Assembly (NCBI GenBank): GCA_043817315.1
Contig: JBDRGY010000016.1
Span: 69,445-133,444, forward strand
DNA: 64,000 nt
Direction of reading: 5' to 3'
DNA from: Patescibacteria group bacterium
GTDB taxonomy: Bacteria > Patescibacteriota > Patescibacteriia > JBDRGY01
Shown: positions 6,726-59,461 of the stretch, in pieces
How positions within the stretch are numbered: position 1 is the first letter of the stretch
Layout of the letters: each line of letters opens with the position of its first letter
Program-made: the position numbers and the translations under genes
The notes under the pieces: model-generated
What the model was told of the DNA's origin: nothing
Seen by the model: the letters and a program-made list of their open reading frames with translations, nothing else
Database searches by the model: none

Positions 6726-9700
6726 ATGAAGAAACTAAAGAAGACCAAAATAATAGTCAGTACTTTGACTGTTTTGGCTTTAGTGGTCCCTTTGGCTATG
6801 GGTAATTCCATCCAAACCGCCCAAGCGGGGGACGACAGTCGCATTTCAGCTGTAGCTGTGGCTACTGGTTATTCTAAGACGGCCGGCGCCACCACCAGCT
6901 ATACTGTCACTTTCACCGTGCCGTCTGGACATCCAATTAATGTCGGTACCAGCGTCAGTCTGCGTTTTCAGGGATCAGGTTGTCCCTGGGACATTGACTG
7001 GATGCAATGCCAATTTGATTTAGAAAATGCCACTGTTGCTACCGGCAGTTTCACCATTGCCGATCAGTGGTCAGAGGGCAGCGAAGGTATTGGTTTTGCA
7101 GCCAACGCCAAGTTGTCAGCAGGCAGCTACACTGTCACAATCAGTAATGTAGGAAACCCGGCGGTAATCGGAGGACTTTACCAGATCTTTGGCTCGACTC
7201 GAGTCCAAGACGATCCACCCGAAGAAGGAGTAGAACAACCAATGACTCCATCCAACGCTCTGTTGCTGGGCAATGTGATAGTGACCGGTACCGTCTATGA
7301 TACTGATGGCACTACTCCCATGCAGAACGTCTGGGTGCAGCTACACTCTAATGATTGGAGTGTCGATTTTGGCAGCAATACCAACTCCAACGGTCAATAC
7401 GCCTTAATTGGTGCATTGGCTAACGGTACCTATACCATGGAAGCCCATGCCCCCTGGGAAAACACTGATGTCCTCTCGCCTGATCCAAAAACTGTTAACT
7501 ATAGCGGCACTACTTTAACCAGTAACTTCGCCATGATTGCCCCGGTCAAGACTATCAAAGCATATGTAAAGTATAATAACGGTGTTCCCTGCACCTCAGC
7601 CCGGGTAAATGCCAACAAAAGAGACGGTGGTGGTGGCTCAGGAGCAAGAGTTGATGCTAACGGTCTAGCTCAATTCAGCGTCTCCGGCGGCAACTGGGAA
7701 TTAAGACCAGAATGCGGCTGGGATCCGGAAAACAACCAACCGTTAAATTGTAACTGGGCCTTCAACCAACCAGGACAACAGGTCAGTTTCACTAATGACA
7801 GCTCTACAGAAACCAAAACTGTCAATCTGACTGTTCAACAAACCAACGCCAAAATAAAAGGAACCGTTAAGCTGCCCAATGGCACTTTGCTTTCCAACGG
7901 ATTTGTTGATATCAGATCGGGCGGACCAGACGGCGGTGGTGGTAACGGCAGCGGTCTCTGGAACGGTGCATTCGATGCTAACGTCATGGCTGGTAATTAT
8001 AAAGTATCTGTCCATCCTGACGACCAAAATCCTGATCTGGCCAGATATTATTCTGATGAGGTGGATGTCAATGTGGGAGTAGGAGAAACGAAAACTCTCA
8101 ATATCACCATGAAACAAAAGACTTCAAAGATCACCGGTACGGTTAAGAACAAAACTACCGGAGCCGGTGTAGAAGGAGTCTGGCTGAATACTTGGAAAAG
8201 AGAGGGTCAAGGTTGGTCCAATACTCAAAGTGGTGCCAATGGCGCTTTCACCTTCTGGGTATCAGCTGGTGATTGGGAGTTTAATGTTGACACTCATCGC
8301 CGCGACGAAAATCAAGCCACCACCTATATTCCCGCTGACAGTAAAATGCACAGCGTGTCTGTCGGTAACAATGAAACAGTCTCCGGCATGGTCATCAACG
8401 TCCAAGAGGCTGATGCCAACATCAGCGTCAAAGCTGTTGATAAAAATGGTGCCGCCATTACCGAAGATACCTGGGGCTGGGCCTTCTGTCGCAAAAAAGG
8501 CCAAGGCTGGGGCCCTGGTAATGAATTTGGTTCCGGCATGCAGCAAGGAACAGCCAATATTCCTCTAATCGGTGGCTTTACCTACATCTGTGGTATGCAC
8601 AACCCTCCAGATAGTCCTTTTCTTCTAGAAGAGGATAAAGAAGTAACTGTGGCCGCTGGCCAAACAGCTCAAGTCAATCTTACCCTCTTGGAACCAGATT
8701 CAGCCATCATCGGTTGGGTCAAAGACCAACAGGGAAATATAGTAAAAAATATGGGTAACCAGGCTGAAGTGTTTGCGGTGGAAGCTGGCGGAAACTGGGA
8801 ATGGCGACCAGGTAGGCTAAATGATGACGGCAGTTACGAAGTAAATCTCCTGGGTGGCCCTGACAAAATATATATGGTCGGCTTTCGCGTCTGGGGCATG
8901 GAGAAGGGTGAATCGGAATTTGTGGAAACCCATCCTGAACCCGATGACTCAATCAGGGTGCCGGCTAATTCTGAAGTAACCAAGATCATTACTGCCTTTA
9001 GGGCCGACACCTACATCTCCGGTCAAGTGCTAGATCCTAGCGGTAACCCCATGGGTAACGTCTGGGTAGGCGCTGATAACCACCAAGCTATGGAAGGTAA
9101 GATCAAGGGTGATTTTGAAGGCGGTAAAGTGTTCAATACTGGGACTGGAACCAGGCCAGATGGCACCTTTAAGCTCAATATCGTCTCTGGCACTTTTAAT
9201 CTGTATTCCGGTACGCCCCCAGAATTCCAGAATGACTTCATGTCCCCCAGAGAAAGACAAGTTACTGTGACCTCTGCCTCCCCGGCCGAAGGAATCGTTA
9301 TGCAATATCGACAGGCTGACGCCTTTATCACGGCTGCGGCCACTCTGCCTAGTGGTTCTTCTCCGATGTTCGGTTGGTGCCATGCTTGGAATCCGGAAGG
9401 CGGTCATTCCGGCCGAGACATCTTTGACGGCCAACCCGCCAGAATTCCTCTAACTGCTGGCACTTGGTTTGTCGGCTGCGACACTATGGATCCGGAAACC
9501 AACAAATTCTACCGCTCCGAAGAACAAAGAGTCTCTGTAGCAACTGGCGATGACAAGTCATTGTCTTTCAGCATGACCGAAGAATCATATACAATTCCTG
9601 AGCCGTTCAGCCAAACCTTTACTGCTTCTCAGCTCAACGTCTTCACCTTGCCTGACGGTACTACTGTCACTCTGCCGGCCAATGCCGCTGGCAGCGAAGA

Positions 9701-11117
9701 GGGTAACTATCAATTTATGGGCACTCCTGGCACTAACTTCTGGATTACTGAAGATTCTGAACCAGCCTGGTACACTTGGGATTTAGAAATTCTTGACCCC
9801 AACAATCAGGTAGCAGAACAGCTGCAATCCAATGCCACTATCTGCATGCCCTTAAAACAGGACGTTATGGACGAAAAAAGCTTAACTGTTGATGATATCT
9901 TTCCCAAGTATTGGGATACAACCGCTTCCGCCTGGAAAACTCCTGAATCAGCCATTATCAACGAGGCTGAGGGTCAGGCCTGTCTACAGGTATCTCACTT
10001 TACTGAATTCGCTCTAACCACTCAGGCTTCTTTAGCAGGCGCTGGAGGAACAAGCGGTCCAGCTGATATCTTGGCTACCCCGGCTTCCGGCGGTGGTCCT
10101 CAGATCATTATTGCTAATGAAGACGGCAGCACAGTTTCTAACTTCTTCGCCTATGATTCCGGGCTGCGAATTGGTCTAACCGCTGCAACCGCTGATGTCG
10201 ATGCTGACGGCGAGACCGAAATAGTAGTCGCTCCGGGAGCCGGAGCCGGTCCTCAAGTCCGCATCTTCGATCATCAAGGTAATGTAGAAAGACAATTCTT
10301 CGCCTATCCCGAACATATCCGCTCTGGCATCTATGTCACCACCGGTGATGTCAACGGAGACGGCACGGATGATATCATCACCTCCACTCGAGAAGGTGCC
10401 GGACCACAAGTAGCTGTCTTTGACTCTGACGGCAATACCATCTCTCGTTTCTTCGCTTACGCCGAAACCTATCGCAATGGTTTCAGCGTTACCACTGGTG
10501 ATGTTAACGGCGATGGGTCTGATGAAATAGTCGTGGTGCCTGACGGCAGCGCCGGACCGCAAGTCCGCGTCTTCGACTATCAAGGCAATGAATTGGCTTC
10601 TTTCTTCGCCTACGGTGACACTGTCAGAGGTGGTTACAACGCCACCACTGGTGATGTTAACGGCGATGGCGTAGCTGATATCGTCATTACCCCCAAAGCT
10701 GGTCTAGGTCCTCAAGTAGCCATGTTCACCGGCACCGGAACCTTAATTGACCGTTTCTTCGCCTATGCGGAAAGTTTTCGAGGCGGTATTAACGTTTCAG
10801 TCGGTGATACAGATGGTGATGGCAACAATGACATCGTGGCTTGTCCCGAATCAGGTGCTGGCCCCCAAATCAGAGTCTTTGACACTGATGGTTCGGCCAA
10901 ATCACAGTTCTGGGCTTATGCTTCCACCTTACGCGGTAAATTCACCTCATTCGTTGCTGATCTCAACGGAGACGGCACCAATGAAGTGGTAACTGCTCCG
11001 GGTGAAGGTATGGGACCGCAGGTCAGAACTTTTGATAGAAACGGAAATCCTCTATCACAGTTCTTCACTCACCACACCGGCTTTCGAGGTGGCCTCAACA
11101 TGTTCCCGGCTTACTAA
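6726..11117 (+). CDS. Giant secreted surface protein: signal peptide, multiple CarboxypepD_reg/Ig-like beta-sandwich domains, C-terminal array of 8 FG-GAP-like propeller repeats
   Basis: N-terminal Sec signal (MKKLKKTKIIVSTLTVLALVVPLAMG...AQA); RBS AAAGGAG. Repeated G-[TK]-V-x-d-x-G-x-P...NG-x-Y modules. The C-terminal 340 aa or so carries 8 repeats of consensus G-x-GPQVRVFD-x-x-G-N-x(4)-FFAY-x(3)-[FY]RGG-x-x-V-x-x-GDVNGDG-x-D-E-I-V. Confidence 0.8.
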   Translation: MKKLKKTKIIVSTLTVLALVVPLAMGNSIQTAQAGDDSRISAVAVATGYSKTAGATTSYTVTFTVPSGHPINVGTSVSLRFQGSGCPWDIDWMQCQFDLENATVATGSFTIADQWSEGSEGIGFAANAKLSAGSYTVTISNVGNPAVIGGLYQIFGSTRVQDDPPEEGVEQPMTPSNALLLGNVIVTGTVYDTDGTTPMQNVWVQLHSNDWSVDFGSNTNSNGQYALIGALANGTYTMEAHAPWENTDVLSPDPKTVNYSGTTLTSNFAMIAPVKTIKAYVKYNNGVPCTSARVNANKRDGGGGSGARVDANGLAQFSVSGGNWELRPECGWDPENNQPLNCNWAFNQPGQQVSFTNDSSTETKTVNLTVQQTNAKIKGTVKLPNGTLLSNGFVDIRSGGPDGGGGNGSGLWNGAFDANVMAGNYKVSVHPDDQNPDLARYYSDEVDVNVGVGETKTLNITMKQKTSKITGTVKNKTTGAGVEGVWLNTWKREGQGWSNTQSGANGAFTFWVSAGDWEFNVDTHRRDENQATTYIPADSKMHSVSVGNNETVSGMVINVQEADANISVKAVDKNGAAITEDTWGWAFCRKKGQGWGPGNEFGSGMQQGTANIPLIGGFTYICGMHNPPDSPFLLEEDKEVTVAAGQTAQVNLTLLEPDSAIIGWVKDQQGNIVKNMGNQAEVFAVEAGGNWEWRPGRLNDDGSYEVNLLGGPDKIYMVGFRVWGMEKGESEFVETHPEPDDSIRVPANSEVTKIITAFRADTYISGQVLDPSGNPMGNVWVGADNHQAMEGKIKGDFEGGKVFNTGTGTRPDGTFKLNIVSGTFNLYSGTPPEFQNDFMSPRERQVTVTSASPAEGIVMQYRQADAFITAAATLPSGSSPMFGWCHAWNPEGGHSGRDIFDGQPARIPLTAGTWFVGCDTMDPETNKFYRSEEQRVSVATGDDKSLSFSMTEESYTIPEPFSQTFTASQLNVFTLPDGTTVTLPANAAGSEEGNYQFMGTPGTNFWITEDSEPAWYTWDLEILDPNNQVAEQLQSNATICMPLKQDVMDEKSLTVDDIFPKYWDTTASAWKTPESAIINEAEGQACLQVSHFTEFALTTQASLAGAGGTSGPADILATPASGGGPQIIIANEDGSTVSNFFAYDSGLRIGLTAATADVDADGETEIVVAPGAGAGPQVRIFDHQGNVERQFFAYPEHIRSGIYVTTGDVNGDGTDDIITSTREGAGPQVAVFDSDGNTISRFFAYAETYRNGFSVTTGDVNGDGSDEIVVVPDGSAGPQVRVFDYQGNELASFFAYGDTVRGGYNATTGDVNGDGVADIVITPKAGLGPQVAMFTGTGTLIDRFFAYAESFRGGINVSVGDTDGDGNNDIVACPESGAGPQIRVFDTDGSAKSQFWAYASTLRGKFTSFVADLNGDGTNEVVTAPGEGMGPQVRTFDRNGNPLSQFFTHHTGFRGGLNMFPAY

Positions 11118-11137
11118 GACTTACAGAGCTTCAATAG

Positions 11138-11168
11138 AAAACTCCCCGCTGTAGCGGGGAGTTTTCCT
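11138..11168 (+). terminator. Intrinsic terminator after the 1463-aa gene
   Basis: AAAACUCCCCGC-UGUA-GCGGGGAGUUUUCCUUU. Confidence 0.7.
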
Positions 11169-11174
11169 TTGCCC

Positions 11175-11203
11175 TTGAAAAAGAGTCAAAAATGTGCTAT
11201 AAT
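11175..11203 (+). promoter_or_regulatory. Near-consensus sigma70 promoter (TTGAAA, 17 nt spacer, TATAAT)
   Basis: ttgaaa (11175-11180), 17-nt spacer, tataat (11198-11203). Confidence 0.6.
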
Positions 11204-11271
11204 GAGTACATAATAAATCTTCCAGGTCTACATGGAGGAACTTATAACTAAATACCATTCAACAAGATAAC

Positions 11272-11297
11272 ACCACATTTTTGTGGTCTTTTATATT
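11272..11297 (+). promoter_or_regulatory. Terminator-like hairpin inside the 5' leader of the 1725-aa gene (candidate attenuator)
   Basis: ACCACA-UUUU-UGUGGU followed by CUUUUAUAUU, 23 nt upstream of the ATG at 11320. An upstream hairpin CUUCCA-ggucuaca-UGGAGG sequesters a GGAGG motif. Confidence 0.45.
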
Positions 11298-11319
11298 CAA
11301 AAATTAATAATCAATAACT

Positions 11320-14300
11320 ATGTCAATCATTAAAAAAATCGTCTCCATTATCACTGTAATTTCCTTGGTAGCTCTGCTCTATCCCCTGGCTCCTCCTCAG
11401 CCTCAAACGGCCAGAGCAGCCACCCCGGGGAAGTTTACTGATGTATCAGTAACAGCGAGTAATTATACGTACGATGCTGCTGCTAATATTACTTTTACCT
11501 TTACTACAGCCAACTCTCTTACTGCCGAGAATGATGTTATCCGTTTTTATTTTGAGAATTTCAGTGATTGGGCCAACACCTTTACCTTAAGCAGTATTAC
11601 TGACGATGGTGGCTCCATTGATTACATGGAATACAAAAGCACCAATTATATTGAAGTTTACTTAGTTAGCTCCCCTGTTGCAGCCGGTTCAGTGGTTGAA
11701 GCTGTTTTTGCCGTTACTCACAGAGACATTGTTGGTTATGAAAGAGTAGGCATTGTTTCTTTCAGCCCGGACGGTGGGGGCACTGCTTATGAAGGATGTA
11801 CTGATGCCGGAGGGGGTGGTGCTTGGGATGATTGCACCCCTTATTATGTTATAGTGCCGGTTGGTACTCCGGAAGTAAAGGGCCGGGTTTTGGGACCAAT
11901 TGGTACGGCGGATGTCAACAACGGTATTTTTGAAACTAATGTCAATCTCTGGAACAGCGGTGGTTATTGGAATTGGGCCGCTACCGATCATCTCGGTTAT
12001 TTCTATTTCTACCAAGTGCCGACTAGTTCATGCGAGCTGGACTTTAGTAAGCCCTGGGATGCTGGTGTTGCTTACTCTGCTCCTGATAATCAAACTACAA
12101 CAGTAACTAGCGGCTCTACCACTGATATGGGGATTATCAGATACAATCTAGCTTCTGCAACTGGCATCGTAAAAAGAGAAGATAACGGGCAAGCTCTTCA
12201 AGATGTTAATATAAATTTCATGAACATTCCCATGCCCCCTACTAATACCGACGAGAATGGCCGATTCTATCTACCGCGTGTTGATCCGGGAACTTATTAC
12301 GTAATGATCGAAAAACCCTGGGGAGAAGCTGGTGAGGGCTTGGTTAATCCTGAACCTATCTCTGTAACTGTAACGGCCGGCTCTACAACTAATATGGGTA
12401 CCATTTATCTGGAATCAGCCAACAAAACAATCAAAGGTACTGTCAGACATCCTAACGGCAATCCGGTAACCGATGCCCAGATTGGTTGCAACACCCCCAT
12501 GGGCGGCGGTTGGTATTCAGCTACTACCAATGGCGCTGGCTACTATGAATTATTGGTCGGCAAGGGCCACTGGATGTGTTGGGTAGAACATGATTATAGT
12601 ATTCCTGATCACCAATTCAACTGGGTTTATTTTGACATGCCTTCGGGAATAACTTTTTCTGCAGACAATGCAGTAACCGAAACTAAAACTCAAAACTATA
12701 CCGTAACTGCCATTGATTCGACCATCCGTGGGCGAGTATTAAAGCCCAACGGCAGTCCTCTGACGGGCGAACCAGTTAATGTGGAAATCTTTAATCAAAC
12801 CGGTGGCGGTAATTGGATTCAAGTGGATTCAGCTACCGGAGCTTTTTCAGTCGGTGTACCGGCCGGTACTTATCAGGTAATGGTCAACATGTGGAGTGAT
12901 AACTGGGGCGGACCCAGCCCACAAACAGTTACTGTCTCAGCCAATTCTACTTATAATATGGGTAATCTCTATCTTCTGCCAAAAAGTGCCTCTATCTCTG
13001 GTACGGTGTCGGATACAGACAGGGCCGGGCTAAATAATCAATTTGTTGATTGCTGGGTACAGAATGAGTGGGGCAAATGGTCCTCCGGCAACACGAATAG
13101 TAATGGAGACTTCAGCTTTGCTGCCTTTGGTGGTTCTACCTATATGTGCAATCCCATGACCAATATGGGAGGTTGGGGAGGAGAGAATGAAGAGACTTAT
13201 GTTTATTTGGGTGCTCCTCAATCTGTTAATCTTCCTAATGTAACTAGCGCAGCTACCGGCGTAGATTTTGAACTGACCCGAGCTGACGCTACTATTAATG
13301 TAACCGCAGTTGACAGTAACGGAGATCAAATAAACGATATCTGGGGTTACGCTTTTATAGGTATGGGTGACATGATGGGCCCAGGCATGGGTGGCACTCC
13401 AATTGACGGTGGTACCGGTAGCTTCAAAATCCCCTCGGCTCAGTGTCCTGCCAGTTCTCCCTGTTACTTGAGTATTTCTATGCCTCCAGGCCAAGGAGCT
13501 GATTACTCGCCAGCTGGAGCAGTCTCTTTTTCAGTAACAGCTAACGGCACCGCTAATGTAAAAGTAGCTATGGTTCCTAATGATGCCACTCTGACAGGTT
13601 ATATTGTTGACAGTAATGGTGATGCTATAACCGGGGTCAGTGCTGTCGTCTTCGCTGACAAATTCGCAACAATGTCTTTCTTCGAATCTTGGGTAAATAT
13701 TGCTACCGGTCAATACACTATGAATACAGCTCCTGGAACTTATACTCTAGGCTATTTTGTTGATAAATCCACTGGCTATTTAGCCAGTGGGATGACTGAT
13801 AACGAAGTAACTACTGTCTCCGGTCAATCTGTCACCAAGAATTTAACTTTGGCCGAAATCGACTCCTGGATTACCGTTTCCGTCAAGGCACCCAACGGCG
13901 GCCCTATGCCCGGTGCTTTTGTTGACGCCTCGACTCAATCAGGTTTGGGAGAAATTCATGACGGCCCCATGATGGGCCCTGGCATGATGATGGGCCCCAT
14001 GATGGGCCCTGGCATGATGGGTGAAATGACCGGGGCAGATGGTACTGCTACTATTGGTTTGCCCGGCGGATCTACTTATTATGTCTCAGCTTCCCTGCCC
14101 CCTGAAATGAGCTACATCAACCCTGCCAAGCAGGCTGTAACTATAGAATCCGGGGAAACGGCAACCCTTACTTTACAATTCAGAGAATCAGATGCCACTA
14201 TTTATGGCACGGTGACCAAAGATGGCACGGCTACCTATGCCGGTGTCTATGCCTATTCTGATACTGGCGGCTTTACCCAAGATTTTGCCTGGAACGGCGC

Positions 14301-16497
14301 CTATTCTCTAAATGTTACCCAGGGCGATAACTGGCATGTTATTACTAAAGCTCAAGTAGGCAATGATTATTATTCCAGTGGTGAAAAAGTAGTAACAGTC
14401 GATGAGGCCATGGAAACACTTAATTTAGAATTAAGTTTAGCCGTGGCTAATATCCCTGATCCAGTCACTGCTACTTTTACTTGCTCTAATCCGGCGGTAG
14501 TGGCTTTTGCCGACAACAGTGTCACCGTAAACCTACCGGCCGGAGCTCTGTCCGCTAGCCAAGAAGAAACTTGTAAGATTACCCTTACCCCTCAGCCCCT
14601 ACTGCCCGATACTGCCGAAAGAAAAGTATTTAGATTCGGAACAGAAATCGTTGGTTATGTTGAAAATGCAGAAAAGGAAGATCAATTTAATTCCAGTGCT
14701 ACGGTCACTATCTGCTGGAATGCAGAAGCCATGGAAGCACTTGGCTTAACTATAGATAATTTTAATGGTAGTTATTGGGATGAAAGTGCTGCCTCTTGGA
14801 TGGGCACCAATAATTCGACATCGGATGAGGATAATAATTGCATAACCTTCCAAGCTAATCACTTTACTGACTTTGCTATCACTTCAGCTGAAATTTCAGC
14901 TCCCCGGATCACTGTTACTAGTCCAGAGGATGAAACTACAACTATAACGGCAAATTCAATAGTGGTTGAGGGCACGGTTTCTGACGTCAACGCTGATCTG
15001 ACCATCGCCTTGGACGGTACTTCAATTGGCGCAGTATCAATTGACTCTGCCACCGGCGCCTTCTCAGAAACAGTCACAGATCTATCTATCGGCACTAATA
15101 CCATTACAGTTGATGCTGAAAACGGAGTAGGAACGGCTGCTACCGTCTCCAGGACTGTAACTTACGATGCTGCTGGTGAAGGAGATCTGGGCACTGTTAC
15201 CGGCGTTGAATTATCACTGGCTGCCATGCCTTACGGTGACGGAGGCCCTCAAATCAGGCTATTCGACAAAGAGGGCACTGCTATCGGTACCTTCTTCGCT
15301 TATAGTCAAGATCTGGTTGGTCAATTCCAAATGGTCTCGGCCGACTTAGATGGCGATGGAGCCAAAGAGATTATCACCTCAACTGGTGAAGGATTTGGTC
15401 CTCAGATTAGAGTGTTCAAAGCTGACGGCACCTTGCTGGATACTTTCTTTGCCTACCAAGAATCATTCCGAGGTGGTGTTGATCTGGCCTTAGGAGACAT
15501 ATCCGGAGACGGCAACATTGATTTGGTAACCAAGCCGACTCAGGGCGGCGGGCCCAATGTCCGAGTCTACCAATGGGATACCGCTACTCATTCCTTCGAG
15601 CTCCTGGATTGGTTTATGGCCTTTAATGAAGGTTTCCGGGGAGAAATCAACTGGCTACTAACTGATGTGGATAATGATGATGCCGCAGAGATAATCATGG
15701 CTCCCAAATCTCAGGGTGGGCCCAATGTCAGAGTCTACCAGTACAATGGAAATGCCATGGAAGTAAAAGATTGGTTTATGGCTTATGATGAAAATTTCCT
15801 GGGCGGTGTCAATATCCTGGCTGGCGATGTAGATGGAGATAATATTAAAGAAATCATTACCACTCCCCATCAACAAGGCGCCCCCAACGTTAGAATCTAT
15901 CAGTGGAATACCGCTTCCGAACAATATGAAGTGCTCGATTGGTTCTGGGCCTTTCAAAACTCCTTCCGCGGTCAATTCAACACAAAAATTGCCGACGTCA
16001 ACGGTGACGGCAATAAAGACATCATCGTGGCTCCGGCTGAAGCGGGCGGACCCAACGTCAGAGTCTATACCTACAACACAACTGACGAAATTGTTGAGCT
16101 GATTGACTGGTTCTGGGCCTATCAACAGAACTACCTGGGTGGTGTCAATCTGGACATAGCTGATCTGGATGGTGATGGTAATAAAGAAATTATCACTACC
16201 CCCAATGCTAGCGGCGGCCCCAACATCCGGGCCTATGAATACAACCCTGATGATGGAGCTTTTGAAACATTGGATTGGATAATGGCCTATCATGATACTC
16301 ATCGGGGCATGATTGAGACCCAAGTAACTGATTTAGACGGAAACGGTGACAGTGAATTGATAGTTGCACCCTTAACTAATGGTGGTCCCAATGTCAGGAT
16401 CTATAATTATGCTGATGGTGATCTGCAGCTAGACAACTGGTTTTGGGCTTTTGCCGAAACCTTTGAAGGTGGTGTCAACATCCAAACTCTGTATTAA
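11320..16497 (+). CDS. Giant secreted surface protein: signal peptide, several CarboxypepD_reg-like beta-sandwich domains, Met/Gly/Pro-rich low-complexity tracts, C-terminal array of about 9 FG-GAP-like repeats
   Basis: Signal peptide MSIIKKIVSIITVISLVALLYPLAPPQPQTARA. Modules such as GRVLKPNGSPLTGEPVNVEIFNQ...GTYQVMV. Tracts GMGDMMGPGMGG and GPMMGPGMMMGPMMGPGMMGEM. C-terminal repeats GGGPNVRVYQ...DWF[MW]A[FY]...[FL][RG]GG[VI]N...D[VL]DGDG..EII..P, about 58 aa each. Confidence 0.8.
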   Translation: MSIIKKIVSIITVISLVALLYPLAPPQPQTARAATPGKFTDVSVTASNYTYDAAANITFTFTTANSLTAENDVIRFYFENFSDWANTFTLSSITDDGGSIDYMEYKSTNYIEVYLVSSPVAAGSVVEAVFAVTHRDIVGYERVGIVSFSPDGGGTAYEGCTDAGGGGAWDDCTPYYVIVPVGTPEVKGRVLGPIGTADVNNGIFETNVNLWNSGGYWNWAATDHLGYFYFYQVPTSSCELDFSKPWDAGVAYSAPDNQTTTVTSGSTTDMGIIRYNLASATGIVKREDNGQALQDVNINFMNIPMPPTNTDENGRFYLPRVDPGTYYVMIEKPWGEAGEGLVNPEPISVTVTAGSTTNMGTIYLESANKTIKGTVRHPNGNPVTDAQIGCNTPMGGGWYSATTNGAGYYELLVGKGHWMCWVEHDYSIPDHQFNWVYFDMPSGITFSADNAVTETKTQNYTVTAIDSTIRGRVLKPNGSPLTGEPVNVEIFNQTGGGNWIQVDSATGAFSVGVPAGTYQVMVNMWSDNWGGPSPQTVTVSANSTYNMGNLYLLPKSASISGTVSDTDRAGLNNQFVDCWVQNEWGKWSSGNTNSNGDFSFAAFGGSTYMCNPMTNMGGWGGENEETYVYLGAPQSVNLPNVTSAATGVDFELTRADATINVTAVDSNGDQINDIWGYAFIGMGDMMGPGMGGTPIDGGTGSFKIPSAQCPASSPCYLSISMPPGQGADYSPAGAVSFSVTANGTANVKVAMVPNDATLTGYIVDSNGDAITGVSAVVFADKFATMSFFESWVNIATGQYTMNTAPGTYTLGYFVDKSTGYLASGMTDNEVTTVSGQSVTKNLTLAEIDSWITVSVKAPNGGPMPGAFVDASTQSGLGEIHDGPMMGPGMMMGPMMGPGMMGEMTGADGTATIGLPGGSTYYVSASLPPEMSYINPAKQAVTIESGETATLTLQFRESDATIYGTVTKDGTATYAGVYAYSDTGGFTQDFAWNGAYSLNVTQGDNWHVITKAQVGNDYYSSGEKVVTVDEAMETLNLELSLAVANIPDPVTATFTCSNPAVVAFADNSVTVNLPAGALSASQEETCKITLTPQPLLPDTAERKVFRFGTEIVGYVENAEKEDQFNSSATVTICWNAEAMEALGLTIDNFNGSYWDESAASWMGTNNSTSDEDNNCITFQANHFTDFAITSAEISAPRITVTSPEDETTTITANSIVVEGTVSDVNADLTIALDGTSIGAVSIDSATGAFSETVTDLSIGTNTITVDAENGVGTAATVSRTVTYDAAGEGDLGTVTGVELSLAAMPYGDGGPQIRLFDKEGTAIGTFFAYSQDLVGQFQMVSADLDGDGAKEIITSTGEGFGPQIRVFKADGTLLDTFFAYQESFRGGVDLALGDISGDGNIDLVTKPTQGGGPNVRVYQWDTATHSFELLDWFMAFNEGFRGEINWLLTDVDNDDAAEIIMAPKSQGGPNVRVYQYNGNAMEVKDWFMAYDENFLGGVNILAGDVDGDNIKEIITTPHQQGAPNVRIYQWNTASEQYEVLDWFWAFQNSFRGQFNTKIADVNGDGNKDIIVAPAEAGGPNVRVYTYNTTDEIVELIDWFWAYQQNYLGGVNLDIADLDGDGNKEIITTPNASGGPNIRAYEYNPDDGAFETLDWIMAYHDTHRGMIETQVTDLDGNGDSELIVAPLTNGGPNVRIYNYADGDLQLDNWFWAFAETFEGGVNIQTLY

Positions 16498-23043: not shown

Positions 23044-23763
23044 TCACTGTTTTTGGGCAATCAAACAAAGGTTGTAGGCCTGTTTTTGGTCTGTTTTTTT
23101 GCCTTTCTTGGCGTAAAAAGATTCGATTATCTTGAATTTTTCCGAGCTTACCAATCGTTCTAATTCTACCTGGCCAAAACCGTGTAAATAGCGTTTGGTC
23201 AGAACCTCTCCTTGGGGATTTTTCCAAGGCCTAAAAACGTCTTTTATTTCTTCAGCTTCCCTTCTAATAATATCGTCTGCTGGCAAATTTCTCAGTTGCT
23301 CATTCATCTTGGCCTGAGCAAGGTTCCAGACAGTAATCATTAAATAGCCGCCTGGTTTCAAAACCCGGTAAAAATCTTTAATTACCTGGCCACGGTATCC
23401 CGTCGAGGGAACGTGATGCAGAGTAGCAACTGATAATAAGACATTAAATTGTTGATCAGCTAAGGGCAGGGATAAAATGTCACCAACTTTAAACTTAACT
23501 TTGGGATATTTGCCCTGGGCCTTTCTAATTAGTCTGGGGCTAATGTCGACGCCCGTATAGCTGATCCCCAACCCCTGCAAACTATCATAGAGGCGACCGT
23601 TACCACAGCCGGCATCTAACACTTTATCTCCGGATTTGATATACTTTTTAAAGATAGCAAACTCCGACCAGTCTCGATAACGAGTTTGGCTAAAATGATC
23701 AGCAATAGTTTCATAGTTGTCTTTAACCTGTTTCAAAATTTTATCGGCTTGTCGTTTATCCAT
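23044..23763 (-). CDS. Class I SAM-dependent methyltransferase
   Basis: Motif I VLDAGCGNGRL. Start trimmed to MDKRQADK (ATG at 23763) to avoid overlapping the divergent gene. Confidence 0.65.
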   Translation of the reverse strand: MDKRQADKILKQVKDNYETIADHFSQTRYRDWSEFAIFKKYIKSGDKVLDAGCGNGRLYDSLQGLGISYTGVDISPRLIRKAQGKYPKVKFKVGDILSLPLADQQFNVLLSVATLHHVPSTGYRGQVIKDFYRVLKPGGYLMITVWNLAQAKMNEQLRNLPADDIIRREAEEIKDVFRPWKNPQGEVLTKRYLHGFGQVELERLVSSEKFKIIESFYAKKGKKTDQKQAYNLCLIAQKQ

Positions 23764-29462: not shown

Positions 29463-32400
29463 TTAAAAAAAGCCAGCCGCTATAGTAACTCCGCCTGTAT
29501 AGGAGACGTCATAGGCCAAAAATTCTGGCGACAATAACCGTCCTTCCTGGTTGTAGATCCTGATATAGGAAGCCCCTGAGCCCCCGACCCCCGTAATGAT
29601 CTCATCGTAGCCATTTCCGTTGGTGTCAACGGCCGTAACCGACACACCACCCCTTGAAGCCTCATCAAAGGCCATAAAACCAGGACTTAGTATTTCATAG
29701 GCCTGACTACGTCCCACCCCGAATATTCTGACATGGGGTCCGCCACTGCTGACAATTCCCGTTATGGTCTCTTGCTTGCCATCGTTATTGACGTCACCGG
29801 CACAAGAAGTGATGCCGCCTCTAAAACTTTCCTCATAGGCCATAATTCCTAAAGTAACTGGTGTATAGCGCCCTTCCCTCATGCCAAATATCCTGATATG
29901 AGGACCACCTCGGCTAGTGGGCGTAGTTATCAATTCGCTGATACCGTCACCATCCACGTCAGCAATGGAGACAGCAATTCCACCTCGAAAATTTACATCG
30001 TAAGCCATAAAATTCTCAGTGGTCGGAACTATCTCTCCGTTTCTCAGGCCGAATATTCTGACATTGGGACTGCCGCCACTGATTGGAGCCACTGCTATTT
30101 CATAGAGACCATCGCCTTCAATATCACCCACCCCGATATTGATACCGCCTTTAAAATTGGCGTCATAAGCGTCAAAATCCCAACCCAGATTGTTGCCGTC
30201 AACATCAAAAACCTTGATAGTAGGAACACCGCCCTCTCTGGTACTGGTAATTATTTCTGAAATTCCGTCACCATTGATGTCTCCTACAGCCACATTGATT
30301 CCTCCCCAAAAATCCATATCATAAGCGTAGAAATAATTTACCATCGTACCGTCAGTATTTAAAACACCAACTAGTGATTGACCATTTGACTTGGGGCCAG
30401 TAACAATGTAACGGTTGAGGGTATAAATATAAGTAAAGTAGGTGCCGTCAGAAATGTTATCCAGATCATCTACTGATTTTAGATGCAAATAGTAGGTGCC
30501 GTTGGCCGTCAGGGTAGGGACACTGAAATTAGTTCCAGTCTGGAAGGAACCGTCTTCGGCATCGGCAGTCAAGTCAGTTGATAGGTTCACATAATAACCT
30601 TTAATATCACTGGCAGCATCTACCGCCGCACTCCAGGTAAAGTAGGGTTGGGGGTGGCGATAGGAAACAGTGGCGGGATCAGACAACGCCTCCGTAGCTG
30701 TGCTGCTTGAGTAAACAGAATAAGTGGTAGGATCGGTAGGGCCTGTTTTGTCGATATTGGCGACTGTGGCTGTTGCACTTCCCGGGTTGCCGATTGAGTC
30801 AGCAAATTCAAAGGTGAAGCTGCCGTTTGCGGTAAATGTATATGTGGTAGCACCACTGTTGTTGGTTACAGTAACAGTTTCACTGGGCACTAAAGTGGCC
30901 ACCACGCTTTGATTAGTCGCGGCAGTGGTCGAATAGCTAATGGTGGCAGTGGGGGCTGTGGCATCGGTCTGGCTAAGCGCGTTATTGGCGTTGATCCGAC
31001 CACCGGTTTTAACTTTTCCGGTTAATGAGCTTTTGGTTTCAACATTATCGAGAATGGCATCTTTTATACCGGCATAGGTGTAATTGGGATTATATGACTT
31101 TAGTAAAGCAGCTAATCCGGCTACGTGCGGTGCTGCCATCGAAGTCCCGTTCATGTATGCATAGTTCTGTAGAGCAACAGTCGGATAGATAATCCTAATG
31201 TCATCAATTGCCGCTCCAAAATAATTGCTGTCTGATCCATTGGTCTCCCAGGTAAATCTCACTTTCATATTGCTATCTTTGTAGCTGGAAACATTAAATC
31301 CGCCAGTCCCCGATGTGGCTGAGCCGCAATAATATCCTAGTTCGGTCCAAGAACTACCGTTATAAACATCAGCCGACAGATAATCATTAAAGCATAGGGT
31401 TGAATCCTCTGCTTCCACATAATAATAGTATTGAAAAATAACGGTACTTTGTCCGGCAGTGTTAATGGCATCCGAGGTTAATACCCCGTCAGAGCTAGTC
31501 TGATAGGGGGAATAAGAAGTGTCACCATAAGCCCAGACATTGCCACTGGCAGTATCGGTCATCCAATAGTTATTGGTGCCGCTGCTGGTAAAATCCGTGC
31601 CATTAAAGCCCGGCTGGACGGCATTTTCGAACCCTTCATCGAATTCAAAATAAGGCACGGTGCTATATATATTAACTCCAGGAGCAGCCACATCAACTGA
31701 GGTGGTGCCATAATTGGAAAAGCCGGCCAAACTATCGTTTTGATCGGTGGCGGCCACTGAAATTATATTATCCAGATCATAATCAGAGGGATATTGATGA
31801 GTTCCTCCATCGTTGTTAGTAGCGTCATTGCCAGCTGCTGCCACTATCAAACAGTCGTAAGTAGTCATACCCTCCTCTATGGCGTCATACATGGCCTGCG
31901 AATAGCCAGATCCCCCTAGGCTCATGTTGATAACATCAGCTCCTTGGTCATAGGCTTCGTAAATTCCAGAAACGATATCAGCGTTCGTCCCGAAACCCGT
32001 CAGCCCCAATACCCTGATTGGCACAATTTTGATATCCGATCCAAATCCGGCAATCCCCTGTCCGTTATCAGCTACGGCCGCAATCACCCCGGCAACGTGA
32101 GTGCCGTGATCCAGAAAATCGTAGGCATTGGCATCGTCATCTACAAAGTCATATCCTTGTTCAATTTGAGAACTCAATTCGGGGTGGTATAGAGCTACTC
32201 CGCTATCAATCACGGCTACTGTTGCTTCGGAAGTACTGGCACCGGCCACAACATCCCAGGCGGCCGGCATGTCAATATCGGCATCGGCAGTGCCGGCGGT
32301 ACCGTTGACGGTCTGTCCTGTATTGTGTAGGCCCCACTGAACACCGTAATAGGTGTCGTTGGGGGTACTGGAGGCTTGATAAATATAATTAGGCTCTACA

Positions 32401-32747
32401 TACTCGACAAGCGGATTATCAATTAGGCCCTCGACAAGCTGCTGGGTGGTTTGACTATCAGATTTTAGTAAAGTAATGTTTTGTCTGGCTAATCTGGTTT
32501 TTTCCGTAAGATTTTCGCCCCGAGCCAGTGCTGTCATTTTATTTATTCCCCGGGACTGATTGAGGTCCAGATCGCTTTTCTTAAATTTCACCAGCACTTC
32601 TCCCTCTATATAGTCAGCCTTTTGTCTGTCGAACTCGGGCAATCGACCAACGCTGGAGCTGGCCGTTAATCGAGGAAATAAAATTAAAACAGCTATCCCA
32701 AAAATTAGAATAGCCCCAAGTCGTTTTATTTTTTTTGAGATAACCAT
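29463..32747 (-). CDS. Secreted subtilisin-like serine protease (peptidase S8) fused to a C-terminal array of about 7 FG-GAP-like propeller repeats
   Basis: Catalytic triad motifs AVIDSGV (Asp), HGTHVAGVIAA (His), GTSMAAPHVAGLAALL (Ser). N-terminal signal/anchor and an I9-like propeptide. C-terminal repeats GG-x-P-x-[IV]R[IV]FG...[FM]AYD...FRGG[IV]...[GA]D[VI][DN]GDG..E[IL]IT homologous to those of the other three large proteins. Own promoter (TTGTCA, 17 nt, TATAAT) at 32780-32809 on the minus strand. Confidence 0.85.
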   Translation of the reverse strand: MVISKKIKRLGAILIFGIAVLILFPRLTASSSVGRLPEFDRQKADYIEGEVLVKFKKSDLDLNQSRGINKMTALARGENLTEKTRLARQNITLLKSDSQTTQQLVEGLIDNPLVEYVEPNYIYQASSTPNDTYYGVQWGLHNTGQTVNGTAGTADADIDMPAAWDVVAGASTSEATVAVIDSGVALYHPELSSQIEQGYDFVDDDANAYDFLDHGTHVAGVIAAVADNGQGIAGFGSDIKIVPIRVLGLTGFGTNADIVSGIYEAYDQGADVINMSLGGSGYSQAMYDAIEEGMTTYDCLIVAAAGNDATNNDGGTHQYPSDYDLDNIISVAATDQNDSLAGFSNYGTTSVDVAAPGVNIYSTVPYFEFDEGFENAVQPGFNGTDFTSSGTNNYWMTDTASGNVWAYGDTSYSPYQTSSDGVLTSDAINTAGQSTVIFQYYYYVEAEDSTLCFNDYLSADVYNGSSWTELGYYCGSATSGTGGFNVSSYKDSNMKVRFTWETNGSDSNYFGAAIDDIRIIYPTVALQNYAYMNGTSMAAPHVAGLAALLKSYNPNYTYAGIKDAILDNVETKSSLTGKVKTGGRINANNALSQTDATAPTATISYSTTAATNQSVVATLVPSETVTVTNNSGATTYTFTANGSFTFEFADSIGNPGSATATVANIDKTGPTDPTTYSVYSSSTATEALSDPATVSYRHPQPYFTWSAAVDAASDIKGYYVNLSTDLTADAEDGSFQTGTNFSVPTLTANGTYYLHLKSVDDLDNISDGTYFTYIYTLNRYIVTGPKSNGQSLVGVLNTDGTMVNYFYAYDMDFWGGINVAVGDINGDGISEIITSTREGGVPTIKVFDVDGNNLGWDFDAYDANFKGGINIGVGDIEGDGLYEIAVAPISGGSPNVRIFGLRNGEIVPTTENFMAYDVNFRGGIAVSIADVDGDGISELITTPTSRGGPHIRIFGMREGRYTPVTLGIMAYEESFRGGITSCAGDVNNDGKQETITGIVSSGGPHVRIFGVGRSQAYEILSPGFMAFDEASRGGVSVTAVDTNGNGYDEIITGVGGSGASYIRIYNQEGRLLSPEFLAYDVSYTGGVTIAAGFF

Positions 32748-32828: not shown

Positions 32829-33893
32829 CTACAAATCAATGGTGGTTTGATCCACGATTAACCTGGCTAAAACATTTTCTTGGATTGTTTTATCTCCCCA
32901 GGTTGGTTGGTGATAATCAACAATTTTAATTGGTTTAAATTCAATATTGCTGATATTTTTATCCTGAAGAGTCACTTTAACCACTACTCCTTCAGTGGTG
33001 GGGACAGACCATTCCTGGTCAAATACAAAATTGCCTAAACTATAAAATATATGGCCTCCCTCATATTGTTCATAAGTCTGTACCACATGGGGGTGATGAC
33101 CGATCACTAAATCGGCTCCGGCATCTATGGCCGCTCGGGCAAAATCAATTTGTTGTTGGCCGGGTGTATAAACATACTCGGCCCCAGAGTGCATAGAAAC
33201 AATTACCAGGTCAGCCTGTTGCCCGGCTCTATTTACGTCGTCGATCATTATATCAATGTCCATATTATTGGTACCCATTTTAGTGGTACTGGCCAAATTT
33301 GAATTGGGATAGGCATAGCCAAGATAAGCGAATTTTAGGCCATTCCTCTCAATACTTACCGCATGATGAGATTGATCGCTGTCAAAACCAGCGCCACAAT
33401 ATTCGATATTGTTGTCACTCAAGATATTCATAGTGTATTCCATACCAGCCGTTCCTTGATCACCGAAATGATTGTTGGCTAAGGTTACGATGTCGATTCC
33501 GGCCAGATTTATCCCTTCGATTGTCTGGGGCAGGGCTCGAAAAACGACACTGCCGTTGGGAGTGGCGCTACCTCCGTCATACAGGGGAGATTCCAAATTG
33601 ATAAAGGCTATATCCGCTTGAGAGAATTGTTCGGCTATTTCTAAAAACGGTCTAGTCCAGTCTTGATATTTCAGCATTTTCTGCTCTACTGTCCTGGCCA
33701 ACATTACATCACCCCCAAATATTAGACTGGTCTGGACCGGATCAGTATTTGTAATCGTCTCAGAATAATAGTCTTCAACCTTCCATCCTTCCAAGCTTCT
33801 GTCATTGGGGAATAAAATAAAAGCAATTACGCTCAGGGCACCAATACCAATTGCAATAATAATGTTTAGGTTATTTTTCATCTTTTGCGCCAA
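32829..33893 (-). CDS. CapA-family (PGA_cap) metallophosphatase-like protein, membrane-anchored
   Basis: N-terminal TM segment plus a CapA/PgsA-like metallophosphoesterase core (GGDVMLAR..., HPHVVQ, GNFVFDQ). Confidence 0.7.
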   Translation of the reverse strand: MAQKMKNNLNIIIAIGIGALSVIAFILFPNDRSLEGWKVEDYYSETITNTDPVQTSLIFGGDVMLARTVEQKMLKYQDWTRPFLEIAEQFSQADIAFINLESPLYDGGSATPNGSVVFRALPQTIEGINLAGIDIVTLANNHFGDQGTAGMEYTMNILSDNNIEYCGAGFDSDQSHHAVSIERNGLKFAYLGYAYPNSNLASTTKMGTNNMDIDIMIDDVNRAGQQADLVIVSMHSGAEYVYTPGQQQIDFARAAIDAGADLVIGHHPHVVQTYEQYEGGHIFYSLGNFVFDQEWSVPTTEGVVVKVTLQDKNISNIEFKPIKIVDYHQPTWGDKTIQENVLARLIVDQTTIDL

Positions 33894-44753: not shown

Positions 44754-44766
44754 GGCATCCACCCCC

Positions 44767-56920: not shown

Positions 56921-59461
56921 CTATAGATTAACCCCGTTGAGGTAGCCCTTGGGATAGGCAATAAATTCATTGAGCAATAAAGTGCCCCGCCAATTGTATA
57001 CTCTGACCTTAGCTACGTCGCCACTTTCTATTGCTGTCACTATTTCAGCCTGGCCGTCACTATCCAGGTCAGCACTGGCCACATTGACTCCGCCCTGAAA
57101 GGAAGAATCAAAAGCCATGAAACCAGGGTTTAATAAACTGATGGTACTTTGTCTGTTGCGGCCAAATACTCTGATATGCGGTCCTCCAGCGGACACTACT
57201 CCGGTGATAATTTCATCAGCTCCATCGCTGTTTAGATCGCCGCAGGCTAAATTAATACCGCCCCGGAAACTTTCCTCGTAGGCCATCAAGCCCAGGATAA
57301 CCGGGCGATAGACGCCATTACGATAACCAAAGATTCGTAAATGAGGCCCCCCCTGAGATTTTGGGGCAGTTATGATTTCTGACAAACCGTCTCCTTCCAG
57401 ATCGCCGACAGCCAGATTGACCCCGCCGCGAAATCCTGAATCATAAGCCATGAAATTCTCGGTGGTCGGCAAATACTGTCCGTTGCGATAACCGAAAATT
57501 CGAATATTGGGACCGCCTCCGGAAAGTGGAGCCACTACTATTTCAGCCAAGCCACTGCCGTCCAAGTCACCGGTAGCCAGGGCTAACCCTCCTTGAAAGT
57601 TGCTATCAAAAGCCAGTACCACTTTTTCCAGAGTTCCCTGGGTATTAAATATCCTGATTTCGCCCCGACGGCCCGGGCCGGAAGCTGTAATAATTTCTTG
57701 ATTACCATCGCCATCCACGTCAGCTTTAGCCACCTTAACACCGCCACGGAAACTTTCTTCAAAAGCCATGAATTGGCTGACTAAATTTCCGTACTGATCC
57801 AATATTCTGACCTGGGGACCTCCTCCCTGTTTGGTGCCAGTAATAATCTGGTTGGTTACTTGAAAAGGCTCAAAGTCAGTTTGTAACGTATAAGTAGCCG
57901 AATCTTGATTGCCCAACCAATAGGCTTGGTTGAAGTCAGTAATGTCTAAGAAATGATATTCCATTTGTCCTGCTGCGGCCAGGCGAACGACCAGCCCCGT
58001 ATCAAACATACGATCAGTCGGATATGGAATAGCAGTATGGCCGGCAACTATGCCCTGGCTGTGATCATGGAGATCGGCGTAGCTAAACGGGTTTCTGGTT
58101 TCCATGAACATCCCCCAATAGGTAGAGGCCGTCTCTGAAGGGATTGTCCAAAGGCCCGAACTGTTAGTACCTCCGGAATACTTAATCATGTCTTCAAAGC
58201 CATAGGCTGATTCCTGAAAAATGGCAATTCCTGCTTGGGGCAAAGGATCGCCGTTTTTGTCCAAAACCTTTATCTTATTTTGAGCTGGAATATCTTTTAA
58301 ATACTCCCCGGGTATGCCCCTCCGCTTGGGCAGTCCCCTTCTATCTCCTGAGATGTCAGTGTAATAATTGTTAAAACGGATCAGGGCCAATATGGAATAT
58401 TCGGAAAAATACTGCTCGTTGATACTGTTTAAGAGGCCCGAGTGTCTGTTTTTATAAACATAGTCAGTCTCCACCTCGAGCATGCCCAGTCCACCACCTA
58501 CTGTGGCTCCATCCTCATCAGTAATATGAACATCAGAAGTATAAATAGATAGCTTAGACAAATCGACTAAGCCCAGGGTGTTAATGGCTAGGTTGCGCAA
58601 TAAATTCCAGTCAGTCGTTTTGGCATAAGCATTAACATAATCAGGGTCAGCGCACCAAATTCCCCGGTCCAGACAATCGTTGTCATCATAATCCCAAGCA
58701 ATATTCCAAGAACCATCGTACAGCCAATCCTCGGACCCAGTGCTACTGTCTATCTCACCATTGGCATGAATGTAAATATTATCAATTCGGACCCGTAGAT
58801 TAGCGCCGCTTGAAGTAGTAGAGCCCGTGGCACCGGTTAGGGCTTGATTCAAAATTTCATTGAAGGCACTGACTTGCTGCTGCAGCCAGTCTTCACAAGA
58901 ATAGGACCCTGCGCTGTTTTTCTGGTAATCAAAAGCGGAACAAAAGCCTTCCTCGACATGAAATATTAAGGAGAGGGTGTTGGTCTTTTCGGTCAATAAG
59001 TTATTCTGTTCTGATATTTCTTCAATGGTACCCTCGGGGTCAACCTGGAATTTGATGGTGTGGGTCCCGTCCACCCAGCGCCACAAATAGTCTTGAGTGG
59101 TGTAAGAGCCAGGGTTGAGATTGCTAATGGTTCCCGACGAAACTTCGACACCGTCAACGTACCATTTAAAACCAAACTCCCCTGAGATAACATTGCCCTG
59201 ATTGGTAATCTGAGCAGTGAATGTAACCATCTCTTCTTCTTCGGGCCAGCGCTGCCAGAATTCAGTACCAGTTTTCAGACGATACTGGCCATTCAATCCT
59301 CTTTCGGTGTGATATTTTTCATAGCGAGGTGTCCTGGAAATAAAGGTAACGTCCAAATCGGCCAGTTCACTCTCGTCTGTTGTCGCTTCTGTCTTCTCAA
59401 CCAAAAAGAAGCCGGAGATTATTAGGGCTAAAATGACTAGATAATATTTTTTCTTAACCAT
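56921..59461 (-). CDS. Secreted 846-aa protein with a C-terminal array of about 6 FG-GAP-like propeller repeats
   Basis: Signal peptide MVKKKYYLVILALIISGFFLVEKTEA. N-terminal beta-sandwich, then an unassigned middle domain. C-terminal repeats GGGPQVRILDQYGNLVSQFMAFEESFRGGVKVAKADVDGDGNQEIIT... homologous to those in the 1463-aa, 1725-aa and S8 proteins. Overlaps cutA by 25 nt. Confidence 0.75.
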   Translation of the reverse strand: MVKKKYYLVILALIISGFFLVEKTEATTDESELADLDVTFISRTPRYEKYHTERGLNGQYRLKTGTEFWQRWPEEEEMVTFTAQITNQGNVISGEFGFKWYVDGVEVSSGTISNLNPGSYTTQDYLWRWVDGTHTIKFQVDPEGTIEEISEQNNLLTEKTNTLSLIFHVEEGFCSAFDYQKNSAGSYSCEDWLQQQVSAFNEILNQALTGATGSTTSSGANLRVRIDNIYIHANGEIDSSTGSEDWLYDGSWNIAWDYDDNDCLDRGIWCADPDYVNAYAKTTDWNLLRNLAINTLGLVDLSKLSIYTSDVHITDEDGATVGGGLGMLEVETDYVYKNRHSGLLNSINEQYFSEYSILALIRFNNYYTDISGDRRGLPKRRGIPGEYLKDIPAQNKIKVLDKNGDPLPQAGIAIFQESAYGFEDMIKYSGGTNSSGLWTIPSETASTYWGMFMETRNPFSYADLHDHSQGIVAGHTAIPYPTDRMFDTGLVVRLAAAGQMEYHFLDITDFNQAYWLGNQDSATYTLQTDFEPFQVTNQIITGTKQGGGPQVRILDQYGNLVSQFMAFEESFRGGVKVAKADVDGDGNQEIITASGPGRRGEIRIFNTQGTLEKVVLAFDSNFQGGLALATGDLDGSGLAEIVVAPLSGGGPNIRIFGYRNGQYLPTTENFMAYDSGFRGGVNLAVGDLEGDGLSEIITAPKSQGGPHLRIFGYRNGVYRPVILGLMAYEESFRGGINLACGDLNSDGADEIITGVVSAGGPHIRVFGRNRQSTISLLNPGFMAFDSSFQGGVNVASADLDSDGQAEIVTAIESGDVAKVRVYNWRGTLLLNEFIAYPKGYLNGVNL

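Follow-up and report, generated by a model that had tools for sequence, protein, structure and literature searches.

Beta-propellers of the FG-GAP/VCBS supercluster carry a DxDxDG cation-binding motif as their defining mark, and VCBS propellers typically recognise carbohydrates (Pereira & Lupas, PMC9218822). In Vibrio cholerae a Velcro-closed propeller tethers two different adhesins, Bap1 and RbmC, to the bacterium's own exopolysaccharide in the manner of 'double-sided tape'; with these two proteins the idea of a shared propeller that anchors diverse cargo is already established. We describe here a window of 64,000 nucleotides from a Patescibacteria group bacterium (assembly GCA_043817315.1, contig JBDRGY010000016.1, positions 69,445 to 133,444 of the forward strand) in which four genes, designated A to D, encode large proteins that all end in an array of FG-GAP/VCBS repeats. 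As with Bap1 and RbmC (6mlt), these are predicted to be secreted proteins with an FG-GAP-type propeller that is common to differing cargo: A and B bear a stack of immunoglobulin (Ig)-like domains, C an S8 protease, and D a CARDB domain together with an uncharacterised domain. Our preferred reading, to which we give a probability of about 45%, is that the array forms a Ca2+-stabilised, lectin-like propeller that tethers or targets the protein bearing it.

Four proteins share FG-GAP/VCBS repeats

A hidden Markov model (HMM) of the repeat, built from six units of A, was run over all 259 six-frame open reading frames (ORFs) of at least 60 amino acids (aa) in the window. It matched A, B, C and D only (full-sequence E-values of 8e-165, 3e-83, 2e-66 and 9e-50). 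Because the next-best ORF reached no better than E 0.15, the window contains exactly four members, far beyond chance, and they are the same four that a preliminary description of this DNA had listed. With units anchored on the motif GGP-x-[VI]R, A has 7 (aa 1122-1463), B has 8 (1308-1725), and C and D have 6 each (~789-1094 and 546-846), a range of 6-8 that narrows the 6-9 first proposed. Full units are 49-57 aa in length; the final unit is always 32-38 aa and ends just after 'RGG-V-N-V' at the stop codon. The 27-unit alignment of the window arrays agrees with the consensus drawn up earlier; that of the subtype reads GGP-x-VRVF...FFAY-D-xx-FRGG-VNVA-xGD-VDGDG-xx-EIIT-xP.

The resemblance to FG-GAP repeats that had been noticed from the sequence alone was borne out by the Pfam models. 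All four proteins exceed the gathering cut-off of 26.9 bits for PF13517 (FG-GAP_3/VCBS; A 63.3, B 50.2, C 36.0 and D 56.0 bits), and A, C and D exceed that of 22.1 bits for PF01839 (FG-GAP; 70.9, 48.0 and 45.3 bits), B falling just below it at 21.6 bits. A DxDxDG-type cation motif (DxD/NxD/NGxxD/E, for example 'DVNGDGTDD') is found in every complete unit of all four, in its strict form in 6 of the 6 complete units of A and in strict and relaxed forms in B, C and D. These are canonical FG-GAP/VCBS (integrin-type) repeats, and the domain is well described and routinely annotated rather than a newly recognised family. The window module has all the testable defining features of the supercluster as set out by Pereira & Lupas (2021/2022): the DxDxDG motif, located in every blade in the hairpin between strands 1 and 2, blades of four strands, an extracellular context and a blade number that varies and is most often 6. 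The four arrays belong to a Patescibacteria-rich sequence subtype that is in no way categorically different from the supercluster.

Fold and probable closure of the propeller

From the single sequence of aa 1101-1463 of A, AlphaFold gave an unusable model, with a predicted local distance difference test score (pLDDT) of 40.8. Supplied with 124 aligned homologous modules, it reached pLDDT 86.6 and a predicted template modelling score of 0.82. In this model 24 strands make up six four-stranded blades with pLDDT >90 over aa ~1151-1447. The module, of which the copy in A was modelled, is thus predicted to fold as a toroid of four-stranded antiparallel blades, the beta-propeller that had been forecast from the sequence.

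In a Foldseek search with the A model the top ranks were taken by the integrin-like fungal N-acetylglucosamine (GlcNAc) lectins PVL, PAL and AAL2 (2bwr, 5mb4 and 4tqm; E 5e-9 to 3e-7), and the lower ranks by rhamnogalacturonan lyase, BBS2, NHL, Bap1, the Tc-toxin FG-GAP domain and integrins. The three lectins have blades of ~56 residues and Ca2+ sites, and their repeats are offset by one strand, as is predicted for the window arrays. Unlike the window proteins they are stand-alone intracellular fungal proteins, and the matches are distant (17-19% identity, template modelling score ~0.5). A GlcNAc pocket of the PVL/AAL2 type (Asn/Asp-x5-Gly-Gly-Trp-x4-His, in the segment connecting strands 4 and 1) was rejected for the window arrays, where its residues are absent: in the 27-unit alignment, compared by eye, this segment reads [DE]-x-x-F-R-G-G-[VI]-N and has no conserved Trp or His. 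A sequence comparison with proteins of solved structure ranks V. cholerae Bap1 (6mlt, E 1e-9) as the nearest, with integrin alpha-V next (E 6e-4). The 8-bladed Bap1 propeller, unlike the window modules, is interrupted by a beta-prism lectin domain, and its ligand, Vibrio polysaccharide, is Vibrio-specific. Pfam scans of the four proteins gave no match to a beta-prism or jacalin-like domain; to judge from this and from a similarity of only ~90 residues, the window proteins are not orthologues of Bap1 or RbmC.

The residues that precede the arrays ('ADILATP', 'LSLAAMP', 'RYIVTGP' and 'NQIITGT') fit the strand-2 consensus 'EIITxP', so that each array would run from strand 2 to strand 1 of one blade: strands 2-4 at its start would be completed by strand 1 at its end, closing the ring in Velcro fashion. 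Blade I of AAL2 consists of N-terminal strands 2-4 and C-terminal strand 1 (PMC4483166), and the Bap1 propeller likewise has a Velcro strand. Among the A orthologues (n=7), conservation is 62% in the lead-in, 63% in the first unit, 58-74% in the internal units and 75% in the terminal truncated unit. Strand register, the topology of AAL2 and Bap1 and this pattern of conservation together point to a closing blade, and hence to probable blade numbers of 7, 8, 6 and 6 in A, B, C and D, those of the last three being predicted from sequence. Closure of the ring by the C-terminal strand would account for the invariant truncation of the last unit. Within that unit of A, 'QFFTHHTGFRGG' is nearly invariant (10 of 12 positions identical in the seven orthologues, L001-L007); its His-His pair is specific to the last unit of A and may indicate where the closing blade binds a metal or ligand.

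Distribution and position of the module

The A module matched 2,528 proteins at E<=1e-5 among 8,000 candidates scored, and the named matches were mostly from Patescibacteria or Kerfeldbacteria, with some from Actinomycetota. When 1.84 billion cluster representatives were searched with a profile, 95,376 matched at E<=1e-3, of which 10,680 reached E<=1e-30. The preliminary description had held the module to be consistently C-terminal and had set against this a generic integrin-like domain at scattered positions; the latter is, in part, what we found. Among the best 120 database matches the array lies at the C-terminus of 25 proteins, at the N-terminus of 45 and in the interior of 12, while 38 consist of the array alone. 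Of 146 representatives newly obtained from the profile search, 142 have arrays of at least 4 units; in this second sample the array is C-terminal in 58, N-terminal in ~33-40, alone in 11 and internal in the remainder. Arrays in these representatives range from 4 to 12 units, most often six, then 5 and 7, with double propellers of 10-12. The C-terminal arrays of relatives stop at HMM position ~29-34 of 50, as do the window arrays, which would correspond to the Velcro strand.

Precomputed Pfam annotation of the best 120 matches shows the module joined to 24 YkuD L,D-transpeptidases, where it is N-terminal, and to 7 NAGPA-type phosphodiester glycosidases, 5 polysaccharide deacetylases and 4 S8 proteases, as well as to fn3, PKD, CAP and PG_binding_1 domains. 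In about 30% of the closest homologues the module is fused to an enzyme whose substrate is a wall polymer containing GlcNAc. Other cargo of C-terminal arrays includes PKD, Calx-beta, Big_5 and He_PIG domains. The architecture of A and B, a CarboxypepD_reg stack followed by a C-terminal propeller, recurs in many metagenomic proteins and species-representative genomes; one such metagenomic protein, P0197, also carries a Glucodextran_B domain. Since the module is N-terminal in the transpeptidase and deacetylase fusions and C-terminal in ~40% of the proteins sampled, it behaves as a mobile binding domain and not as a C-terminal sorting signal.

A signal for secretion or sorting, comparable to the C-terminal domain (CTD) of the type IX secretion system (T9SS) or to sortase, PEP-CTERM or GlyGly-CTERM signals, would agree with the C-terminal position and invariant end point of the module in all four window proteins and in the A orthologues, but the Velcro closure would explain that end point. 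More than half of the family proteins have the module at the N-terminus or internally, and a folded propeller of 300-430 aa with cation sites is unlike a short motif or a T9SS CTD, which is ~80 aa and obligatorily at the extreme C-terminus. Pfam scans of A, B, C and D gave no match to Por_Secre_tail. The positional data of both samples effectively refute the sorting signal, and we attach almost no weight to it. Full-text searches of the literature did not find 'FG-GAP' and 'Patescibacteria' together, and the candidate phyla radiation (CPR) appeared only in a passing mention of annotation: a CPR-specific role of the propeller is unexplored in the literature, although the domain itself is routinely annotated.

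Relations among the modules and age of the repeats

Proteins A and B are 27% identical over ~1360 aa, almost their whole length, and on this evidence are tandem paralogues. The earlier view that the N-terminal parts are unrelated therefore stands for the cargo of A/B, C and D and fails for A and B themselves. The propellers of C and D are 46% identical and in register, unit i matching unit i best for units 3, 4 and 6 (62%, 67% and 42% identity, respectively). Such likeness between modules on unrelated cargo argues for the shuffling of whole modules. In sequence the window modules fall into at least three types, namely A, units 3-8 of B, and C/D; units 3-8 of B have longer 3-4 hairpins and a Trp-rich strand 4, 'DWFWAY'.

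Units within a protein are on average 40% identical at the protein level and 51% at the DNA level (DNA maximum 66%), and Tandem Repeats Finder (TRF) found no period of ~150-170 nt in the propeller-coding DNA. Five other genomes contain full-length A orthologues of 1436-1501 aa with the same architecture and 7 units, the array ending 0-4 residues before the stop; in the A orthologues the units are individually conserved, unit by unit, across species. A recent amplification of the repeat was rejected on these three grounds (a unit DNA identity of at most 66%, the absence of a TRF period and the orthology of individual units), and the sequences indicate that the repeat family is old, as was first suggested from its divergence at the DNA level. 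A conserved A-B tandem was also rejected, there being no second array-bearing ORF in the downstream flank (about 8 kb each) of the A-orthologue loci L002, L005, L006 and L007. Two full-length A orthologues with a module identity of 59%, L004 (CAZBNI010000054.1) and L005 (CAZJUO010000005.1), come from metagenome-assembled genomes labelled 'uncultured Gammaproteobacteria'; their contigs are probably mis-binned or mislabelled Patescibacteria.

These relations bear on the view that the propeller is a generic scaffold or substrate-recognition domain, with no common ligand and a local role (substrate selection for the protease or transpeptidase, oligomerisation or stability) that differs from protein to protein; its recurrence would then reflect nothing but the ease with which VCBS propellers are amplified and shuffled. 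The family is huge and promiscuous, its 95,376 representatives including N-terminal, C-terminal, internal, tandem and stand-alone arrays of 4-12 units, and the window alone has at least three sequence types of module; VCBS propellers are continuously amplified and vary in blade number (Pereira & Lupas, PMC9218822). The sampled partners, however, are mostly secreted or surface-type domains, enriched for wall-acting enzymes, and the in-register identity of the C and D modules despite their unrelated cargo argues for a function intrinsic to the module. We regard the generic scaffold, with recurrence by mere amplification, as unlikely.

Possible retention of the proteins and proposed role of the propeller

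All four N-termini are basic and hydrophobic and end in a small-x-small site (for example AQA or ARA), as would be expected of proteins exported via an N-terminal signal peptide. No other hydrophobic segment, LPXTG motif or lipobox Cys was found in the sequences of A, B, C and D. Since the proteins appear to be exported and show no sign of being anchored covalently or in a membrane, the shared propeller is left as the one candidate element that could retain or target them. When homologues were screened for signal peptides by hydropathy, 54 of 111 scored positive, but this crude test was too unreliable to be used, many of the metagenomic ORFs being truncated or mis-started.

We propose that each protein is exported by its signal peptide and displays at its C-terminus a closed FG-GAP/VCBS propeller that would be stabilised by Ca2+ at the cation motifs. 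The propeller would serve as a portable lectin-like module, its ligand most likely a polysaccharide, with a GlcNAc-containing glycan of the cell wall or matrix, the bacterium's own or its host's, as the candidate. By binding this glycan it would hold otherwise soluble exoproteins (the Ig-stack proteins A and B, the protease C and the CARDB protein D) on a glycan surface, much as the Bap1/RbmC propeller does in Vibrio. Such a lectin-like tether is the best supported of the readings considered because its VCBS kin bind carbohydrates, its structural analogues are GlcNAc lectins, Bap1 provides a precedent and its homologues are fused to wall enzymes.

Several points weigh against the tether. The signal peptides were read by eye and from hydropathy only. 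The Asn..GGW..His set with which AAL2 and PVL contact GlcNAc is not conserved, with neither Trp nor His after 'RGG'. The conservation of 'FRGG' and 'GGP' gives no hint of a ligand, since these are the counterparts of the FG and GAP motifs, which are structural in integrins. The similarity to Bap1 is local, covering ~90 residues. In the model of A the seventh, closing blade has a low pLDDT of 33-55, the alignment being thin there, and for B, C and D the number of blades is deduced from the repeat sequences rather than from models. The fusions to wall enzymes would also fit substrate recognition instead of tethering.

Another possibility is that of a distal adhesin head: the propeller would be the outward integrin-like tip of an Ig stalk and would bind a protein or glycan of a host cell, some other element retaining the protein on a presumably episymbiotic bacterium. 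The N-termini, however, look like cleavable AXA signals, and with no LPXTG motif, transmembrane segment or lipobox the base of the stalk would be held by nothing. The same module, moreover, occurs on housekeeping wall enzymes (L,D-transpeptidases and deacetylases) that act on the producer's own wall. An integrin alpha subunit has thigh and calf legs, a C-terminal transmembrane segment and a beta subunit as partner, all of which are lacking here; Pfam scans of the window found no leg or beta-subunit families. The orientation is also reversed, the integrin alpha propeller being N-terminal and the window propellers C-terminal, and the sequence match is only E ~6e-4. An adhesin head seems to us doubtful.

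The lectin-like tether has a parallel in the cell-wall-binding modules of monoderm bacteria (LysM, SLH, choline-binding repeats and PG_binding_1), which are repeated, non-covalent modules borne at no fixed position by diverse exo-enzymes; in homologous L,D-transpeptidases the propeller takes the place of LysM or PG_binding_1. It has no kinship with these modules in sequence or fold, and binding to the wall would be by analogy; none of them (SLH, LysM, choline-binding or PG_binding_1) was found in Pfam scans of the four proteins. The initial comparison with surface-anchoring modules thus survives in one half: a portable module in the manner of SLH or choline-binding repeats is plausible and has the precedent of Bap1/RbmC, and the analogy with T9SS CTDs is ruled out by the positions of the array. 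The observation itself was real and its forecast of the fold correct, the reading as a binding or anchoring module was right in part, and obligatory C-terminal placement was wrong.

The Patescibacteria, or CPR, are uncultured, ultra-small and probably host-attached bacteria. A wider role for the propeller in these organisms is a speculative extension that we think improbable at present: the subtype may be their general-purpose non-covalent glycan anchor, used in place of LysM, SLH or sortase anchoring, which would position L,D-transpeptidases, deacetylases and NAGPA-type glycosidases and display proteases and giant Ig-stack adhesins. Such an anchor might recognise wall glycan of the host in addition to the bacterium's own and thereby aid episymbiotic attachment. 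If this were true, a single portable propeller would provide an HMM with which to enumerate the CPR surface proteome and a small soluble domain on which to test glycan binding, and the 'double-sided tape' principle of Bap1/RbmC would reach beyond Vibrio. As it stands, the analysis mainly re-identifies a very abundant domain family that is already annotated.

The four genes and their surroundings

The positions of the genes and their domains are collected in Table 1. In A the signal-like start is followed by a stack of CarboxypepD_reg/transthyretin-like Ig domains and the C-terminal propeller, and in B the propeller is preceded by one further Ig domain, which is Glucodextran_B-like (aa 1195-1283). 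Protein C consists of a signal-like N-terminus, a fervidolysin-type prodomain, an S8 subtilase, an Ig-like spacer and the C-terminal propeller; D has a signal-like N-terminus, CARDB, a domain of ~380 aa and the C-terminal propeller. At NCBI, B is named 'FG-GAP-like repeat-containing protein', C 'S8 family serine peptidase' and D 'CARDB domain-containing protein'. The ~380 aa domain of D gave no Pfam match and no significant sequence match in the PDB; the N-terminal domains of A and B gave no Pfam match, and that of A no significant PDB sequence match.

Table 1. Positions of the propeller genes, their domains and neighbouring features in the window
Feature	Position	Strand	Remarks
Gene A	6726..11117	+	1463 aa; signal-peptide-like N-terminus aa 1-34 (..AQA)
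Propeller of A	10053..11114	+	aa 1110-1463; strand-2-like lead-in 'ADILATP'; 6 full + 1 truncated unit
Last unit of A	11000-11114	+	contains 'QFFTHHTGFRGG'
Gene B	11320..16497	+	1725 aa; tandem paralogue of A (by sequence); MFH1598577.1
Low-complexity loops of B	13372-13395 and 13963-14022	+	Met/Gly/Pro-rich
Propeller of B	15205..16494	+	aa 1296-1725; 7 full + 1 truncated unit
ELP3-like gene	23686-25326	+	TTG start as reported
ORF opposite the ELP3-like gene	23044-23835		263 aa
Gene C	29463..32747	-	1094 aa; MFH1598592.1
Propeller of C	29466..30419	-	aa 777-1094; 5 full + 1 truncated unit
S8 subtilase of C	31038-32228	-	aa ~174-570
PGA_cap/CapA-like gene	32829-33893	-	E 2e-70
Peptidase_C25 gene	41832-44762	-	976 aa
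Na+/Ca2+ exchanger genes	54629-55558 and 55562-56551	-	PF01699
Gene D	56921..59461	-	846 aa; MFH1598612.1
Propeller of D	56924..57862	-	aa 534-846; 5 full + 1 truncated unit
Cargo domain of D	57863-58999	-	aa 155-533; between CARDB and propeller
CARDB of D	58991-59245	-	aa 73-157

There are 29 ORFs of at least 250 aa in the window, and the surroundings of the four genes are those of an ordinary chromosome, with UvrC, RNase J, a class I (W/Y-type) tRNA synthetase, serine hydroxymethyltransferase, FolD, RecA, FtsK, RpoB/C and a Mur ligase; the propeller genes do not lie on an island. Directly upstream of C, on the same strand, is a gene for a PGA_cap/CapA-like protein. Two tandem Na+/Ca2+ exchanger genes lie immediately downstream of D, also on its strand; their position beside D, with its many Ca motifs, may be a coincidence or a link to the supply of extracellular Ca2+.

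Low-complexity loops rich in Met, Gly and Pro (aa 882-901, 'GPMMGPGMMMGPMMGPGMMG') occur in B and are missing from its paralogue A. TRF reported a 30-nt unit in the loop DNA (1.9 copies, 100% match), which suggests a recent expansion of the loop. Met-rich motifs of exported proteins are often Cu(I)-binding.

Elsewhere in the window a protein of the Peptidase_C25 (gingipain) type has a C-terminal domain of ~80 aa that matches FlgD_ig (29.3 bits), CHU_C and, below the cut-off of 27 bits, Por_Secre_tail (24.2 bits). These matches mark it as an Ig domain resembling a T9SS CTD, although the genome is of Patescibacteria, a lineage in which a T9SS would not be expected. An ELP3-like protein with Radical_SAM, Radical_SAM_C and GNAT domains is encoded by a gene that overlaps an ORF on the opposite strand.

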